The position numbers and the translations under genes were made by a program. From the NCBI GenBank assembly GCA_036835125.1, contig DAITMO010000001.1, positions 57,444-121,443 on the forward strand: a DNA stretch of 64,000 nt, read 5' to 3'. Position 1 is the stretch's first letter. Each line of letters opens with the position of its first letter. Below the pieces are notes generated by a model. That model worked only from the letters and a program-made list of their open reading frames with translations. It ran no database searches and had not been told where the DNA came from. Below are positions 14,046 to 32,254 of the stretch, piece by piece. Source of the stretch: Patescibacteria group bacterium. Lineage in GTDB: Bacteria > Patescibacteriota > Microgenomatia > UBA8517.

Positions 14046-15077
14046 TTAAAGATTAAAAATTTCCTTATCGGGGAAAAATAGAGTTTCAGAAATTGTTTCT
14101 ACATTCCCTGCAAGCATAACAAGTCTATCTACCCCAACTGCAATTCCAGAAACATCTGGCATGCCACTTTTTAGTGCATCAATTAGATCCATGTCAATTG
14201 GATAGTCTTCTTTACCTTGAGACATGCGAGTGGCTTTGTCTTCTTCAAACCTTTTAAGCTGCAAGTCGCTGTCTGTTAATTCAGAAAAACAGTTACCAAG
14301 TTCAAGTTTATCCAAAAATACTTCAAATCTTTCTGCAAAATTTGGATCTTTGGAGGGTTTAGAAAGTGAAGCCTGAGAAATTGGATAATCATAAAGAAAA
14401 TACGGACGACCAAGTTTCAATATCTCGGGCTCAACTTTATTGAAATATATCTTATAAAAATCTTCATCTTTTACTTCTAAAACATCAAGATTCGCATATT
14501 TTTTAAAGGCATCGGCAATTCTAATTCTTGGCCAAGGAGTAGTTAAATTATATATTTTTCCTTGATATTCCCATTTTTTTATATTAGTTTTTGGATTAAC
14601 TTTCTTAATTATCTGAATAAATAGATCTTCAAAATCTTCCATTACATCAAAATAATTAGCCCCTACTTTATACCACTCCAGCATTGTAAATTCAGGGTTA
14701 TGAAGGGAACTTACCTCTTCATCATTCCTAAAGCATTTTGTTATTTCAAAACAATTCCCAATACCTGCTGCTAAAAGTTTTTTGATTGAAAACTCAGGAC
14801 TCATTATGAGATATCCAGGTCGTACCTCCCCTTTTGAAGTCCTTAATTCAGTTTTGAATACTTCCAAATTTGGTTCTATTGAAGGAATTGGAACTAAAAT
14901 TGGAGTAGAAACTTCATGAAAGTCTTGTTTTTTAAAAAAATCGCGAATAGCATCAATAACCTTTTCGCGAATCAAGTATTTTTCCAATAGTTTTGGATTT
15001 TCTTTTATTTTTTTCCAAGTTTGCATGAGGCTATTATACTCTATTTGAAACAATAAACTTAAAAAACATCTTGACAA
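14046..15077 (-). CDS. Class II aminoacyl-tRNA-synthetase-like catalytic domain without an anticodon-binding domain; probable EF-P lysyl ligase (EpmA/PoxA-like)
   Basis: 343 aa with class II motif 2 (CFRNDEEVSSLHNPEFTMLEWY) and motif 3 regions. Sits next to efp. AsnA-like function is not excluded. Confidence 0.6.
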   Translation of the reverse strand: MSRCFLSLLFQIEYNSLMQTWKKIKENPKLLEKYLIREKVIDAIRDFFKKQDFHEVSTPILVPIPSIEPNLEVFKTELRTSKGEVRPGYLIMSPEFSIKKLLAAGIGNCFEITKCFRNDEEVSSLHNPEFTMLEWYKVGANYFDVMEDFEDLFIQIIKKVNPKTNIKKWEYQGKIYNLTTPWPRIRIADAFKKYANLDVLEVKDEDFYKIYFNKVEPEILKLGRPYFLYDYPISQASLSKPSKDPNFAERFEVFLDKLELGNCFSELTDSDLQLKRFEEDKATRMSQGKEDYPIDMDLIDALKSGMPDVSGIAVGVDRLVMLAGNVETISETLFFPDKEIFNL

Positions 15078-18180: not shown

Positions 18181-18457
18181 CTCCCCCGGCAGGATTCGAA
18201 CCTGCAACCTCGATCTTACAATACCCCTTCTGTTACCAAAAGGATTGGACTATCTAATCATCTTTATTTTAAAGATGTCAGGTATATAGTCTCTACACAT
18301 TTACTACATTCATTAATTGAATGCAGATTTAGCTCGGGATTGGCCTAAAAAAAAGGTGTTCCCCGAATTAGCCTGATTTTACACTTCAAATCACTTTAAA
18401 GCGCTGCCTTAAACCTATAGTCGACAGGATCTCGCTCTACCGTTGAGCTACAGGGGA
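18181..18457 (-). tRNA. Intron-containing tRNA, most likely tRNA-Asn(GUU): exons 18424..18457 and 18181..18218, interrupted in the anticodon loop
   Basis: Exon 1 is UCCCCUG-UA-GCUC-AACGGUA-GAGC-G-AGAUC-CUGU. Exon 2 is UAA-GAUCG-AGGUU-GCAGG-UUCGAAU-CCUGC-CGGGGGA-G. Together they give a perfect cloverleaf with U1-A72 and discriminator G73, as in bacterial tRNA-Asn. The alternative splice-junction placement gives Thr(UGU). Confidence 0.75.
18219..18423 (-). other. Group I self-splicing intron (IC3-like, Azoarcus/cyanobacterial tRNA-intron type), 205 nt
   Basis: The 5' exon ends in U and the intron ends in G. The intron contains GUGUAGAGACUA and AAUUCGGGGAA, both near-identical to the Azoarcus pre-tRNA-Ile intron core recalled from memory. 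No ORF lies inside. Confidence 0.7.
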
Positions 18458-18549
18458 ACGAAAATTCTAAAATATCAATGAGCTAGGCAATTATAGCAGT
18501 CGGAGGCCAAGTATTCCAGGTTTTAAATCTATCAGGATAATAAGTTTTA

Positions 18550-26057: not shown

Positions 26058-26141
26058 GGAGGAGTGGCCCAGCGGCTACGGCGCGTACTTGGAAAGTACG
26101 TGGGAGCAATCCCTCGCAGGTTCGAGTCCTGTCTCCTCCGC
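26058..26141 (+). tRNA. tRNA-Ser(GGA)
   Basis: Acceptor GGAGGAG/CUCCUCC, anticodon loop UUGGAAA, long variable arm, discriminator G. Folded by hand. Confidence 0.85.
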
Positions 26142-26552
26142 TTAATCAAAAATATCATCTATCATTTTTTTGATTTTTAAAAAATGTTCCTTATGACTAT
26201 ATCGGATTTTAATTGTTCCAAATTGGCTGGGTCTGAAAACATTTGTTTTTTGTCCAAAAATAATAGTTTTTTGAAACCTCTCAAGAGGGATTTTGGTCTC
26301 ATTTGACCAATACTTCTTCAAATAACTTTCATTAAGATCTGAATAGATGAATAATTCTGCTTTAATTCTTGACTCATCCGCTTCAATTATTTCCCTTAAA
26401 AATCGTAAGAACATTTTTATTGTTCTAGAATCTGTATTTGTAAACTCAACAGCAAAGACTTTTCCTCCCCTCCTAAGTGTTCTTTCTTTCGTCCCTTCAC
26501 ATAAATATAATGAGGCGCCAAGGAGACTAAGATCGTGAGCAGAAATATCCAT
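26142..26552 (-). CDS. Hypothetical protein
   Basis: 136-aa ORF abutting the tRNA-Ser. Weak, unconvincing LAGLIDADG-like LLGASLYLCEGT segment. Confidence 0.4.
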   Translation of the reverse strand: MDISAHDLSLLGASLYLCEGTKERTLRRGGKVFAVEFTNTDSRTIKMFLRFLREIIEADESRIKAELFIYSDLNESYLKKYWSNETKIPLERFQKTIIFGQKTNVFRPSQFGTIKIRYSHKEHFLKIKKMIDDIFD

Positions 26553-26617
26553 ATATCATACTAATAAAACCCGAAGATAAAATCAATAACCAATTTAAAA
26601 AAGTGGATGTATTAATA

Positions 26618-27124
26618 TCAAAGAAGATTTTTCGCTTTTTCCAAAGCTTCTTTTTCACTTTTATATGAAAGTCTCTCTAATGCTTCATTATATGGAAGCC
26701 AGGCAATTTCTGATGTTTCAAAATCAAAACCATTGGGGTCATCTTTTATCCACTCCATGAGGTAGTGTGTAACAAACTTCATTACTTTTCCTCTAATAGG
26801 ATGTGTATAAAAAAGATTAATCGTTCCTATTTTTTTGATAATTTTTGCTTCAACTCCAGTTTCTTCTCTTGTTTCTCTTATTGCTGTTTTTTGAAGTATT
26901 TCCTCTGTAGCTTTTACTGATCCTCTCGCCATCGGACCTGGAATATCTGGTCCTGCATCATCAAGCCAACCTTTAGGGAACATCCAATAAGTATTTGGGA
27001 ACATCTTGCTTGCTGATGTTCTTCTCACAAGCCACAATAAACCTTTATCAGTTTTCTTATATACGATTCCTCCTGAGGAAAATTCGCGGCTTAAAATGTT
27101 TTTATCTTGTGTGTCTTTTCCCAC
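26618..27124 (-). CDS. NUDIX hydrolase
   Basis: 168 aa with the Nudix box (AIRETREETGVEAKI). Confidence 0.8.
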   Translation of the reverse strand: MGKDTQDKNILSREFSSGGIVYKKTDKGLLWLVRRTSASKMFPNTYWMFPKGWLDDAGPDIPGPMARGSVKATEEILQKTAIRETREETGVEAKIIKKIGTINLFYTHPIRGKVMKFVTHYLMEWIKDDPNGFDFETSEIAWLPYNEALERLSYKSEKEALEKAKNLL

Positions 27125-27564
27125 TCTTTTAATACTTCACGAGCGCTTTTGAACATATCCTTCTCTTTGCTAGATTTGAGTTTTTTTGTTATTTCTCCCG
27201 CTTCCAACCATTTAAAGTCCTGGAAACCAATAAGCTCGCTTGGGCCTCCTTTTTGGAATAAAAGATAGTAATAATACTTTTGAGATACTGAATTTCCATT
27301 TACAATGACATTTCCTGTATATCTTCCAGCTTCTTCTAGAACTCTAGCTGTCATTCCACCCTGTTCACCAGTAAGCCTAATTACAGCTCTCACAGAAGAC
27401 TCTCCTCGTCTCACAGTTACTTTTGGAATTTCCCAATCACTATCTTCACTTGTCTTAACAAGCAAAAATTGTCTTTTTCCACGGTTTTCTCTAAAGACTA
27501 CTGCGCCCCCAATTAATACTTGCTGATTGTTTTTTGCGTTCATATTTTTTAACTTGACCTCCAA
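27091..27564 (-). CDS. NUDIX hydrolase (second, divergent copy)
   Basis: 157 aa with a degenerate Nudix box (GESSVRAVIRLTGEQGG). Overlaps the downstream NUDIX gene by 34 nt. Confidence 0.6.
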   Translation of the reverse strand: MEVKLKNMNAKNNQQVLIGGAVVFRENRGKRQFLLVKTSEDSDWEIPKVTVRRGESSVRAVIRLTGEQGGMTARVLEEAGRYTGNVIVNGNSVSQKYYYYLLFQKGGPSELIGFQDFKWLEAGEITKKLKSSKEKDMFKSAREVLKEWEKTHKIKTF

Positions 27565-27603
27565 GTTTAACCTTTTAAGCCTATTTAGTAAAGCTCAAAC
27601 GTG

Positions 27604-27685
27604 CGGAGGATGCAGGAGTCGAACCTGCTCTCCCTTACGGGAATTGGTTTTCGAAACCAACGCATTACCGTTCTGCCCATCCTCC
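27604..27685 (-). tRNA. tRNA-Ser(CGA)
   Basis: Acceptor GGAGGAU/AUCCUCC, 3-bp D stem, anticodon loop UUCGAAA, long variable arm, discriminator G. Confidence 0.75.
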
Positions 27686-27705
27686 ATCAACTACCACATT
27701 TTATT

Positions 27706-27780
27706 TGGTGCACCCGGACAGAATCGAACTGTCATCAAGAGCTCCGCAAGCTCCTACTCTATCCGTTAAGCTACGGGTGC
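27706..27780 (-). tRNA. tRNA-Arg; anticodon reads GCG, CCA encoded
   Basis: Acceptor GCACCCG/CGGGUGC, anticodon stem GGAGC/GCUCU, loop UUGCGGA, discriminator A, 3' CCA present in the DNA. Confidence 0.7.
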
Positions 27781-27810
27781 AAATTAAATCTCATTATTCT
27801 CTTCGAAGTT

Positions 27811-28362
27811 TTATTCACTATCTGGCAGTTTTTTAACAACCCAACTTGTAAGCTTATCTAAAAATGAGGGCTGTATTGTTTCATACGGCACATAGGCAGA
27901 AATTTCATTTTTTAGCTTATCCTTTATCTCAGGCTTTACAACTATTTCCATTCTTCCTGGAAAATTAATAGTGTCAAAGGCTACCACTTCTCCACCAGAT
28001 TTGGAAAGAAATGAAAATCTTCTAATCTCTTGCCAGGGAGTTTCTTTTCCATCTACTTTTATTCCTTTATTTGTAACTTTATATTCAATTTCTTCAGGTT
28101 TGACTGTAGAAAGAACATAGAAAAGGAATATCAAAGAAACCATGAGAATTACTGGCATAATTCCCTCAGCTATAAAAAGGACAATGCTTACAATTCCAAC
28201 AATAGAGAAAATAGTTACATAAAACCTTCTTCCATACCTCTTAAACGGTCTTGAGGCAGCAACCCAAGTGACCAACTCACGTTCAGGTTCACGCCTAACA
28301 ACAACCGCTTGTGGTTCATTATTTAAAGAGCTATCTGGTTGGATATTGGCAGCAGTTTCCAT
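27811..28362 (-). CDS. Hypothetical membrane protein
   Basis: 183 aa with two central TM helices. Confidence 0.4.
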   Translation of the reverse strand: METAANIQPDSSLNNEPQAVVVRREPERELVTWVAASRPFKRYGRRFYVTIFSIVGIVSIVLFIAEGIMPVILMVSLIFLFYVLSTVKPEEIEYKVTNKGIKVDGKETPWQEIRRFSFLSKSGGEVVAFDTINFPGRMEIVVKPEIKDKLKNEISAYVPYETIQPSFLDKLTSWVVKKLPDSE

Positions 28363-28428
28363 ATGGATATATTATACCTCAATCAAAAGCTTCGTTCTAG
28401 AACTTGAAGCTGTTATAATATGCGTGTT

Positions 28429-28512
28429 GGAGGGCACGCCAATCGGCTAGGCAATAACCTGCTAAGTTATGACCACGCAAGTGGTTGGTGAGTTCGATTC
28501 TCACGCCCTCCG
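28429..28512 (+). tRNA. tRNA-Ser(GCU)
   Basis: Acceptor GGAGGGC/GCCCUCC, anticodon loop CUGCUAA, long variable arm, discriminator G. Confidence 0.85.
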
Positions 28513-28518
28513 CTCAAA

Positions 28519-28600
28519 GGTAGGTGGGCAGGACGGTAATGCGCGAGTCTTGAAAACTCGTGAGCGCAAGCTCTAACAGGTTCGACCCCTGTACCTACCG
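28519..28600 (+). tRNA. tRNA-Ser(UGA)
   Basis: Acceptor GGUAGGU/ACCUACC, anticodon loop CUUGAAA, long variable arm, discriminator G. Confidence 0.85.
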
Positions 28601-28642
28601 CATTTGACTTAATCTTGTTGATTCTTTATAATCGAGACCGAA

Positions 28643-29966: not shown

Positions 29967-30368
29967 GGGGACGATCGGTCTCGACGGAGAGCTCTTTACA
30001 ATACTGCAAGCAGACTTTAATTCTAAGTCTTTGATTAGAATTAAAAAATATAAGAGAAAGCTAAAAACTTCTCTGCAGGACTTGCATCATTATTTGGTGT
30101 AAATTCTGTTCAACCTATGTACGCACAAGCGTTTGCATAAGTTGCATCCTGAGATTTGAATCTCGATTGAATCAAAAGGGTGTTAACCAATTCGGGATAT
30201 AACTATCAGTTTATGATTAAAAGCTGATAGCTGAAACTAAATTAATCTTACTTTTGATTGTCCGTAGATCGGCTTAAGTTAAAAGGAAATAAAAATTGGT
30301 CTAACAAGCTTGTAGAAGTATTATAGAAAGTATTTTCGGACGCGGGTTCGATTCCCGCCGTCTCCACC
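29967..30368 (+). ncRNA. ssrA: tmRNA (SsrA)
   Basis: 5' GGGGACG pairs with 3' CGUCUCC-A-CC, giving a G3:U70 alanine identity. The 3' T-arm is GCGGGUUCGAUUCCCGC. The internal tag reading frame runs 30054..30140 and ends YAQAFA-UAA. Confidence 0.8.
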
Positions 30369-32254
30369 TATTTTAGTTCAATTGATAGTAGTTTTTCTCC
30401 TGTTAAAAGGATTATTTTCTTTTCAGATTCTGAAACAACTATCTTTGTTGCATTTGCTATTTGGTCTCCCAAATATTGGGCTTTATATTTTCCATTTTTA
30501 TCAATAACCACAACTCTCTTTCCTGCTTTATCAAGAAGATATACGTTTTCATTATCTGGATCAGCATTTATTGCGTCCACATTTCCTATTTCAGGACTAA
30601 CTCCCGAAAGATAAAAATTCTGAGGAGACCCTAGACTGTATTTCAAAATCTTTGAATTTGGATACAAAACATATATTGATCCATTCATTCCCCACTCTAA
30701 AGCATTTGAAAAGTCTGCTTTTGTTGAGGAAGATAACCAGTTTTGTTGAGTTCCAAAATTACTTCCTGATTCACCTGCATATCTATAGATTTGGCCTCCT
30801 GATTTATCTAATACATATAGATTTCCAGCAAAAGAATGAATTAGTGCCTCACCTCCCCAAGTTTTCTCTATTACTTTTACCTTTGTTGAATCAACCTCAT
30901 AAATTCCGTCATTAAGAAGTAAAAACACTGTGTCTTCGTATGCCGCTAAATCTATTGGATTTTCTATTACAGTTGGACCTGTAACAACTTTGCTTTTTTT
31001 ATTGCTCATTTCTATTGTTACAACCCTTGATCCGTTTTTATCCAAAACATATATTAATCCACCCGAATAGGCTACAGCATCACCTTTAAAACCTGAGGAA
31101 AGAAGAGAAAGGTCCAAGAAAAGTTCTGGTGTAACTACATATTCCCCCAAAACCGCGGCCCTGCTGTCAGATATTTTTTGAGCAAGTTCGGTAACCTTAG
31201 GGTCTTTCACTTTTAAAGCCTCAATTTGGGCAAGTTTATTCTCACTATTTAAAAACAAACTTCTTGATTCTTCAGGGTTAATACTAGCAAGATTTATTGC
31301 TTGATCAATTTCATTTTGTGCTTCAATTAATAGTCCTTGATATTGGTGCTTTAGTTCATTCTTTTTCTTTTGTCCAATTCCAAAACCAACACTGACTACT
31401 AAAATAATTAAAAGAATTATTCCAACTGAAAGAGTCATTTTTCTTCCTTGAGAAACAGCTTCATCCTGCATTCCCTGCCTTATATAAATATTTCTTTTTG
31501 GAAGTTTTGAGCTTATTTTTCTTAATAAAGTTAGAGCTTTGTCTTTTATTTCTATTTTTGATGTCTGAGAATACCCATCTGGATTAGAAGGAATGGGAGA
31601 GTTTGTTGGAATCTCTTGGGGTGATGAAATTATACTTTCCTCTTTAAAAGAAATAATCATGGCTCCAGTGTTTGACTTTTCCTCACCTTCATATATTAGG
31701 GGTGTCAAGCTTTCAACCATTGCGTCCAAATTTGCTTCAATAGAACTTCTTTTCAAATCTTCACCCCCAACTTTTTCAAAAAATTCCTTTGTGCCCACAA
31801 CTATTACATCTCCATTTTTCGGAAAACCTGATGCTGTTATTACCTCATTTCCACTTTCTAGAATGGATGCAGTTGACCCTCCTCTAATAATCTGTGTTTT
31901 TACTCCTCCAAAGGCTGCTGAATAAACAACGTTTTCTGAATACACACAACACCCAATTTCCAAACCAGATTCATTAGTGTTAAATTCTTCAACAACCTTT
32001 TGAACTGCAGCTTTTAGTGCATCAAACGGCTTTTCTGAAGAACTGTTGTAATAGGCCTCACGAATTTGTACTGCAATTTCTCTTTCAAAAGTAATTGCTT
32101 CAACTCCTTCTTTACCATTTTTCATAGCTATTATTGCAAATAGCTGACCACGCAGTTTATGAGCATCGTTTTCTGAAGGACTAAAACCGTGAACCTGTAC
32201 CCAACCTGAAGCTCCGGGCGAAACAGTGACTTTTGCACTAGTTATTCTTAACAT
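30368..32254 (-). CDS. Membrane-anchored protein with a C-terminal NHL/beta-propeller-like repeat domain
   Basis: 628 aa with a central TM helix. The C-terminus carries repeated YVLDK..G..Y and VYLLDKAGKRVVVID units. Confidence 0.45.
   Translation of the reverse strand: MLRITSAKVTVSPGASGWVQVHGFSPSENDAHKLRGQLFAIIAMKNGKEGVEAITFEREIAVQIREAYYNSSSEKPFDALKAAVQKVVEEFNTNESGLEIGCCVYSENVVYSAAFGGVKTQIIRGGSTASILESGNEVITASGFPKNGDVIVVGTKEFFEKVGGEDLKRSSIEANLDAMVESLTPLIYEGEEKSNTGAMIISFKEESIISSPQEIPTNSPIPSNPDGYSQTSKIEIKDKALTLLRKISSKLPKRNIYIRQGMQDEAVSQGRKMTLSVGIILLIILVVSVGFGIGQKKKNELKHQYQGLLIEAQNEIDQAINLASINPEESRSLFLNSENKLAQIEALKVKDPKVTELAQKISDSRAAVLGEYVVTPELFLDLSLLSSGFKGDAVAYSGGLIYVLDKNGSRVVTIEMSNKKSKVVTGPTVIENPIDLAAYEDTVFLLLNDGIYEVDSTKVKVIEKTWGGEALIHSFAGNLYVLDKSGGQIYRYAGESGSNFGTQQNWLSSSTKADFSNALEWGMNGSIYVLYPNSKILKYSLGSPQNFYLSGVSPEIGNVDAINADPDNENVYLLDKAGKRVVVIDKNGKYKAQYLGDQIANATKIVVSESEKKIILLTGEKLLSIELK

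Follow-up and report, generated by a model that had tools for sequence, protein, structure and literature searches.

A tRNA-Asn(GUU) gene of a Patescibacterium split between positions 35 and 36 by a compact group I intron

The minus strand of the window (the whole 64,000-nucleotide stretch of DNA analysed here) very probably carries a functional tRNA-Asn(GUU) gene of a Patescibacterium (Microgenomates/Woesebacteria) that is split between U35 and U36 by a compact, self-splicing group I intron with no ORF. The 5′ exon (18424..18457, 34 nt) comprises tRNA positions 1–35 and ends ...AGAUC-CUGU, U35 being the −1 nucleotide; its 3′-terminal sequence is ...AGAUCCUGU (18457..18424). The 205-nt intron (18219..18423) begins with CGACUAUAGG and ends with GGUAUUG, and the 3′ exon (18181..18218, 38 nt, UAA-GAUCG...CGGGGGA-G) supplies positions 36–73 and reads UAAGAUCG...CGGGGGAG (18218..18181); CCA is not encoded after it, the following bases being CGA. 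Both exons were placed by sequence and by the ARAGORN fold of their joined form, and the intron by its match to Rfam model RF00028, its ends being set by the U(−1)/G(omega) rule, a conserved P1 and homologues. The 34-nt exon reaches U35 since position 17 is absent, the loop is interrupted as CUGU|UAA, and the joined exons would read ...GAUCCUGUUAAGAUCG... across the junction (junction 16-mer GATCCTGTTAAGATCG).

The split gene is real, with tRNA-Asn as its product, and it is almost certainly functional. The initial annotation had proposed a minus-strand tRNA with halves of 34 and 38 nt and a 205-nt gap filled by a group I intron, and it stood up to a check of coordinates and sequences. The intron matches RF00028 with 80.6 bits (gathering score 50, E = 6.7e-19) at 18407..18226, across the full model (1–253), and when folded alone it gives a z of −5.3 relative to shuffled sequences; its GC content is 35%, and 34% is given for the host sequence. 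The longest stop-free stretches within it are 26 amino acids on the plus strand and 42 on the minus strand, so it has no homing endonuclease, as had been claimed. The locus is base-for-base identical in four independent assemblies or runs (L001–L004), which excludes an assembly artefact. Joined, the exons are folded by ARAGORN into a 72-nt tRNA-Asn(GTT) cloverleaf with U1-A72 and G73; the cloverleaf falls a little short of perfect, for it carries one A27.G43 mismatch. A purine.purine pair at 27.43 is common to the relatives L005, L007 and L009 and to a published Microgenomatia tRNA-Asn, so this is a trait of the lineage and not damage. A scan for promoter and terminator consensus sequences around the gene returned nothing convincing; a putative extended −10 element, TGCTATAAT (18490..18498, minus strand), suggested by its sequence 32 nt upstream of tRNA position 1, went unflagged because a good −35 is absent. 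The same TGnTATAAT lies upstream of the tRNA in L005, L007 and L009. The host is a Patescibacterium, since the RpoD encoded in the window falls in a 90%-identity cluster with proteins of Ca. Woesebacteria, the Microgenomates group and the Patescibacteria group. A class II synthetase-like gene nearby (14046..15077) is EpmA, and is unrelated to tRNA-Asn.

The isotype is Asn(GUU), with the intron at 35/36. All eight placements of the junction that keep a 7-nt anticodon loop were tried, and they yield Thr(UGU), Thr(GGU), Asn(GUU) or Asp(GUC). Asn(GUU) at 35/36, the placement favoured from the start, is the only in-loop junction with U at −1 and G at omega; the sole other U/G placement within ±6 nt precedes loop position 32 and falls within the anticodon stem. 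ARAGORN misses the gene in its default mode, and in intron mode (-i) it reports tRNA-Thr(tgt) i(33,205) on the precursor. Taken at face value this call would make the gene a tRNA-Thr(UGU) with its intron at 33/34, the exon ending ...CU and the intron ...GGUAU, and the sequence joined in that way likewise folds as a cloverleaf. However, the intron would then end in U instead of G, and U33 would stand opposite an A of the guide, so that the U.G wobble of P1 is lost. The U1-A72 pair and G73 form what we take to be the usual tRNA-Asn pattern, which also argues against Thr, and the uninterrupted gene at the syntenic site of a relative is Asn(GTT), not Thr. In addition, the same two-base shift by ARAGORN and tFind, which miscalls such genes as Thr(UGU) or Ala(UGC) at 33/34, has been documented and disproved by sequenced spliced products of homologues (PMC13011429). 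A tRNA-Thr gene is thus extremely improbable, and the Asn(GUU) assignment is used below.

The order dnaG-rpoD-acs-tRNA is kept in relatives, whose acs genes are 71–76% identical to that of the window. RF00028 matches occur at the same place in L005, L007/L008 and L009/L010, with exon and intron ends ...CCUGU|...UG|UAAGA. At the syntenic site L006 (GCA_040961665.1) has an uninterrupted tRNA-Asn(GTT), which shares 78% identity with the window's joined exons and 76–80% with those of the window and its syntenic relatives as a set; 22 nt past this tRNA lies a relic of an intron-type 3′ exon, matching that of L005 at 33 of 38 positions. The divergence of the tRNA and the adjacent relic rule out L006 as a clean intron-less allele. 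Rather, it looks as if an intron-less gene had taken the place of an intron-bearing one, so that L006 is evidence for the isotype and not for the precise position of the junction.

We aligned the window intron with seven relatives, of which four are likewise Asn-hosted and three, two of them published introns, are Asp-hosted. Unguided, RNAalifold recovers from these eight sequences the tRNA anticodon stem across the intron and P1, P2, P3, P4, P5, P6, P8 and P9. The canonical topology, with P7 added as a pseudoknot, was then scored against partners slid by 1–3 columns and against 500 shuffles. Standard pairs fill 96.5% of the cells (37–47% with slid partners) and 28 pairs show double, compensated changes (5–10 with slid partners), and none of the 500 shuffles equals the observed pairing or covariation. 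Covariation is found in P2, P3, P6, P8 and P9; P1, P4 and P7 are invariant, and so covariation is silent on them, neither for nor against. The intron thus has, besides its above-threshold RF00028 score, a P1 with a U.G pair, an omega-G and a conserved P3–P8 core with a P7 pseudoknot, the features of a group I intron. All coordinates below are on the minus strand.

P1 is formed by the guide GGCAG (18404..18408) and the exon end (18427..18423): GCAG (18407..18404) pairs with exon CUGU (18427..18424), and the first G of the guide pairs with the first nucleotide of the intron (C, 18423). The U.G wobble at the splice site (alignment columns 9–26) and the four exon-guide pairs are invariant in all eight sequences, the flanking pair is C-G in seven clade members and U-G in one, and GCAG lies directly 5′ of P2, matching the Rfam alignment. 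The P1 first suggested, CCUGU with AUAGG, does not hold: AUAGG is part of a 9-nt P1-loop insertion found only in the window and L005 and absent from L007, L009, L020 and the published Asp introns, and therefore it is not the conserved guide. Since CUGU/GCAG puts the U.G pair at the splice site itself, the concern that the wobble lies at −2 also disappears. The insertion, being common to L005, predates the split of that lineage.

The P2 hairpin (18383..18402, GCUUUAAA/UUUGAAGU, loop GUGA) shows compensatory changes in seven of its eight pairs. The 5′ strand of P3 (UCAGG, 18372..18376) pairs with 18282..18278, and three of the five pairs covary, examples being UCGGG/CCCGA in L020 and CUAGG/CCUAG in the Asp intron validated in vitro. 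The P4–P5 domain (18333..18367) consists of P4 (UUCGGGG/UCCCGAG, 18367..18361 with 18339..18333), which is invariant in all eight sequences, J4/5 AA, P5 (CCU/AGG) and a U7 loop. P5 has 3 bp in the minimum-energy fold of the window intron and 5–6 bp in L007 and L009; in this model the short P5 could weaken folding, and it appears to be the only structural weakness of the window copy. All six aligned pairs of P6 (18304..18326, CUGCAUUCA/UGAAUGUAG, loop AUUAA) covary. Next come J6/7 and the 5′ strand of P7 (GUGUAGA-GACUAU, 18286..18298; P7 strand 18291..18286), a block that includes GUGUAGAGACUA, is invariant in the clade and is complementary to 18253..18248. The 3′ strand of P3 (CCUGA, 18278..18282) follows P7 after only 4 nt (UAUA), which leaves the intron without P7.1/P7.2. 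Beyond it are P8 (CAUCUUU/AAAGAUG, 18259..18277), which covaries, and J8/7 with the 3′ strand of P7 (18248..18258), J8/7 being AUUAGA (18258..18253) and overlapping by one base the P7 strand AUAGUC (18253..18248). P7 is the guanosine-binding helix expected from established group I structure; its six pairs are all complementary and invariant, and it forms a pseudoknot relative to P3. P9 (18226..18243, CCUUUUG/CAGAAGG, loop GUAA) covaries at four of seven pairs, and the last intron nucleotide, the omega-G (18219, ...GGUAUUG|UAAG), is G in all homologues compared. Both motifs that had been named as core elements occur in the intron (AAUUCGGGGAA, 18369..18359; GUGUAGAGACUA, 18298..18287), but the latter had been assigned to J8/7; it lies between P6 and the P3 3′ strand, and is therefore J6/7 with the P7 5′ strand. 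Candidates for P10, in which 3′ exon UAA(G) would pair with bases 5′ of the guide, are UUUA in the window and UUA in L007 and L009, with variable spacing; read from the sequences, L020 has no such candidate and conservation of the pairing is uneven among the clade sequences compared.

From this structure the following course of splicing is proposed. Transcription would give a 277-nt precursor, in which the intron would fold into a group I core of P1–P9 with P7 pseudoknotted, and the guide GCAG would pair with exon CUGU to form P1, its U.G wobble lying at the splice site. The first attack, after U35, would be that of a free guanosine occupying P7; the terminal G of the intron (18219) would then occupy the guanosine site, and the 3′-OH of U35 would attack after G18219. 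The exons would thereby be joined into a CUGU-UAA loop, restoring the GUU anticodon, and the intron would be released.

Introns of this kind have recently been described. In 95 complete Patescibacteria genomes, Nakagawa et al. (mSystems 2026; preprint July 2025) found group I introns at 35/36 in 15 tRNA-Asn and 3 tRNA-Asp genes (PMC13011429). One Asn and one Asp intron were shown to self-splice precisely in vitro, as confirmed by sequencing, and changing the omega G to C blocked exon ligation (PMC13011429). The authors credit the 35/36 site to the tFind preprint (Williams 2020, bioRxiv 10.1101/2020.01.27.920355), as type 'Asn.4Ug' (PMC13011429); that preprint raised the number of split tRNA types from 4 to 21. 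By its insertion site, its Patescibacteria host and its homology to published members, the window intron is a further example of this published and experimentally tested class (2025–2026), although its exact sequence is not in Table S3 of PMC13011429.

Its closest published relatives are two Microgenomatia introns of tRNA-Asp(GUC), those of GCA_001029755.1 (validated in vitro) and GCA_030583725.1 (Table S3/S4), to which it is 74–76% identical (74% to the validated one); its identity to published tRNA-Asn introns is 56–63%. The window and these Asp introns share the phylum, the class-level group, the 35/36 site, the exon end CCUGU, the guide GGCAG, the lack of an ORF and the 4-nt layout between P7 and the P3 3′ strand, and they have near-identical core blocks (GGCUAAUUCGGGGAA, AAUCCCGAGCUAAAU, GUAAAUGUGUAGAGACUAUAUACCU and AGAUAGUCC); P1 and the 3′ end are the same as in the validated intron. 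They differ in that the 3′ exon begins UAA in the window (Asn) and CAC in the Asp genes, and in that the window has the 9-nt P1-loop insertion and a longer P6. The tRNA-Asn(GUU) introns of Saccharimonadia and Paceibacteria, for example that of GCA_016700035.1 (validated in vitro), have the same host tRNA, site, U(−1)/G(omega) and CUGU/GCAG P1 as the window, and suffer the same Thr(UGU) 33/34 miscall by ARAGORN. However, several published tRNA-Asn introns have a 33–44-nt insert between P7 and the P3 3′ strand (P7.1/P7.2-like, IA-type) that the window intron lacks, and some of the Saccharimonadia/Paceibacteria ones contain homing endonuclease genes, whereas the window intron does not.

In theory, the intron could be a decayed, splicing-dead copy, the split gene a pseudogene, and tRNA-Asn supplied from elsewhere in the genome. 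The short P5 and the 9-nt insertion in the P1 loop might be read in this way, and the apparent replacement of the intron-type gene in L006 by an intron-less one indicates that loss happens. But the insertion is shared with L005 and so is older than that lineage split, the exons still form a good tRNA, and the variable helices keep their pairing through compensated changes. All of the catalytic core blocks (J3/4-P4, J6/7-P7, J8/7-P7′, P3, the omega-G and the P1 U.G) are intact and identical to the clade consensus, and in the published genomes tested the split genes are the sole tRNA-Asn or tRNA-Asp copies (PMC13011429). We therefore regard decay as highly unlikely. It is somewhat easier to imagine, but still improbable, that the intron depends for its splicing on a protein of the host or on a chaperone. 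In vivo, proteins assist many natural group I introns, and an AT-rich intron (35% GC) with a weak P5 might profit from such aid. On the other hand, Patescibacteria genomes are highly reduced, and a homologue of the same architecture, 74% identical, needs no protein for splicing in vitro (PMC13011429). By analogy with that homologue and with the tRNA-Asn intron that also splices in vitro (PMC13011429), the window copy would be expected to splice in the cell, and to do so protein-free; autonomous splicing of a functional tRNA-Asn precursor is the reading that we prefer.

The subgroup of the intron deserves comment. In IA introns, by definition, extra helices P7.1/P7.2 (or P7.1/P7.1a) occupy the spacer from P7 to the P3 3′ strand. 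With hand-specified strands, this spacer measures 4 nt in the window intron, 3 nt in the Nostoc IC3 reference and 33–44 nt in several published tRNA-Asn introns, and the window intron has no P7.1/P7.2. Its layout is of the IC3 type, a compact core with P2 but without P2.1, a P5abc extension or P7.1/P7.2. Like the IC3 introns of Azoarcus-type tRNA-Ile(CAU) and of cyanobacterial and plastid tRNA-Leu(UAA), it is small (about 200–250 nt) and lies in the anticodon loop, and its core AAUUCGGNGAA...CCGAGC...GUGUAGAGACUA recurs across many phyla in introns of Ile2/Met(CAU), Leu(UAA) and Arg(CCU) genes. The host tRNAs differ, however, and so do the insertion sites, 35/36 in the window as against 36/37 in tRNA-Ile(CAU) and 34/35 in tRNA-Leu(UAA). 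Overall identity is only 55–62% to the introns compared, those of Betaproteobacterial Ile2 genes (L012, L065 and L070) and the Nostoc PCC 7120 Leu intron. Covariance-model classification has placed no Patescibacteria tRNA intron in IC (PMC13011429). The window intron is architecturally IC3-like in spite of these two facts. The label of Azoarcus/cyanobacterial type given to it at first accordingly fits its architecture and core motifs, but sits poorly with an identity of just 55–62% to the Ile2(CAU) and Nostoc Leu introns and with the published assignments (PMC13011429).

Scanned for the core motif, a set with one genome per species gave at least 120 matches. Among the matches listed there are 91 split-tRNA loci that obey the splice-site rule, at least 48 of them in Leu(UAA) and at least 21 in tRNAs with a CAU anticodon; 35/36 loci account for at least 6 Asn(GUU) and at least 1 Asp(GUC) among the same 91. 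A targeted search was needed to resolve a seventh Asn locus, in the Saccharibacteria MAG L055. Six of the seven Asn loci among the matches listed come from MAGs whose labels name Patescibacteria lineages; the label of the other, L020, is just 'bacterium'. Metagenome contigs, scanned with a clade-specific pattern, yielded at least 122 copies. Their hosts were assigned by P1-guided placement, introns ending in GUG being otherwise ambiguous between 33/34 and 35/36; 101 of the 122 were resolved at 35/36, and among the matches listed at least 81 are in tRNA-Asn, at least 18 in tRNA-Asp and at least 2, doubtfully, in tRNA-Tyr. The early remark that group I introns are rare in tRNA-Asn thus fails in Patescibacteria: no other tRNA hosts them as often there, Asn(GUU) accounting for 15 of 22 in PMC13011429 and, among the matches listed, for 81 of the 101 resolved metagenome clade copies.

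In a neighbour-joining tree of 100 clade members among the matches listed, the Asp-hosted copies form essentially one branch, apart from the Asn-hosted ones. About five host changes are needed on this tree (again among the matches listed), compared with about 20 when labels are shuffled, and hosts have therefore been mostly stable, with few switches among tRNAs whose loops start with CUGU. We tentatively suggest, while thinking it somewhat doubtful, that the compact clade without P7.1/P7.2, which is abundant in Microgenomates-type contigs, is IC3 and is mobile between tRNA genes with CUGU loops, presumably through GCAG-guided reverse splicing. Confirmation of IC3 by subgroup models would run against the published conclusion that none of the tRNA introns of Patescibacteria falls in IC (PMC13011429); and if the suggestion is true, a ribozyme without an endonuclease would have moved a few times between tRNA genes that share the CUGU start of the anticodon loop.

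The biology of these introns is already published, and the value of the present locus is mainly practical. Since ARAGORN misses the gene in default mode or calls it tRNA-Thr(UGU) in intron mode, a bin that carries it would seem to be without tRNA-Asn and would be scored as less complete or be mis-annotated, a reminder that standard tools overlook or misname tRNA-Asn genes in bins of Patescibacteria. The class gains from the locus a Woesebacteria/Microgenomates example, and the locus, together with the scans, indicates that the compact form of the intron is common in environmental Patescibacteria and resides, among the matches listed, mostly in tRNA-Asn.

The published tRNA-Asn introns (PMC13011429 Table S3) were compared with positions 18278-18291 of the window, within the intron that splits its tRNA-Asn(GUU) gene. 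Some of the published 35/36 introns (inserted between tRNA positions 35 and 36) carry an IA-like insert of 33-44 nt between P7 and P3', and in others, which include both Microgenomatia Asp introns and a 205-nt Paceibacteria Asn intron, the P7-P3' spacer is only 4 nt. Structurally, then, the 35/36 introns of that study are not uniform, although it gives nearly all of them as IA, an assignment that follows the best-scoring covariance model. A Microgenomatia-like tRNA-Asp 35/36 intron is present in a MAG called Gammaproteobacteria (CAZTGB010000010.1), and the bacterial tRNA-intron core motif is present in one called Methanosarcinaceae archaeon (JAIPUR010000020.1), where no split tRNA was resolved. 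Both are probably mis-binned contigs.

One relative, L006 (GCA_040961665.1, JBFOMY010000011.1, 7224-7346), has an intron-less tRNA-Asn(GTT) gene syntenic with the split gene, and 22 nt past it lies a relic, AAGAATAAAGTCGCAGGTTCGAATTCAGCTCGGGGAGC. In relative L005, whose tRNA-Asn is of the intron type, the 3' exon agrees with this relic at 33 of 38 bases. From these sequences it seems that the intron-less gene took the place of an intron-bearing one, rather than arising by clean intron loss. Among the matches listed, two metagenome contigs each contain two compact-clade intron-split tRNA-Asn(GTT) genes on opposite strands, about 1.5-3 kb apart (L134, 7506-7584 (+) and 10487-10579 (-); L156, 11535-11626 (+) and 12994-13085 (-)).

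A putative extended -10 motif, TGnTATAAT, lies upstream of the split gene on the minus strand (window 18490-18498) and is kept in L005, L007 and L009; in the window it escaped a promoter scan by consensus because a good -35 is absent. Elsewhere in the window, at 26058-28601 and 29967-30369, four tRNA-Ser genes (GGA, CGA, GCU, UGA) and tRNA-Arg(GCG) form a cluster followed by a tmRNA gene of the standard type (RF00023, 124.7 bits), whose tag ends in ...PMYAQAFA. The class II synthetase-like gene at 14046-15077 (minus strand, 343 aa) has a TIGR00462 match (303.9 bits versus a cutoff of 286.9); it encodes EpmA, the EF-P lysine aminoacylase, and has no relation to the tRNA-Asn gene.

In two relatives the split tRNA-Asn gene is directly adjoined by a large serine recombinase gene with Resolvase, Recombinase and Zn_ribbon_recom domains (L007, 7338-8891; L010, 2569-4098), which suggests that the split gene serves as an integration site for mobile elements.
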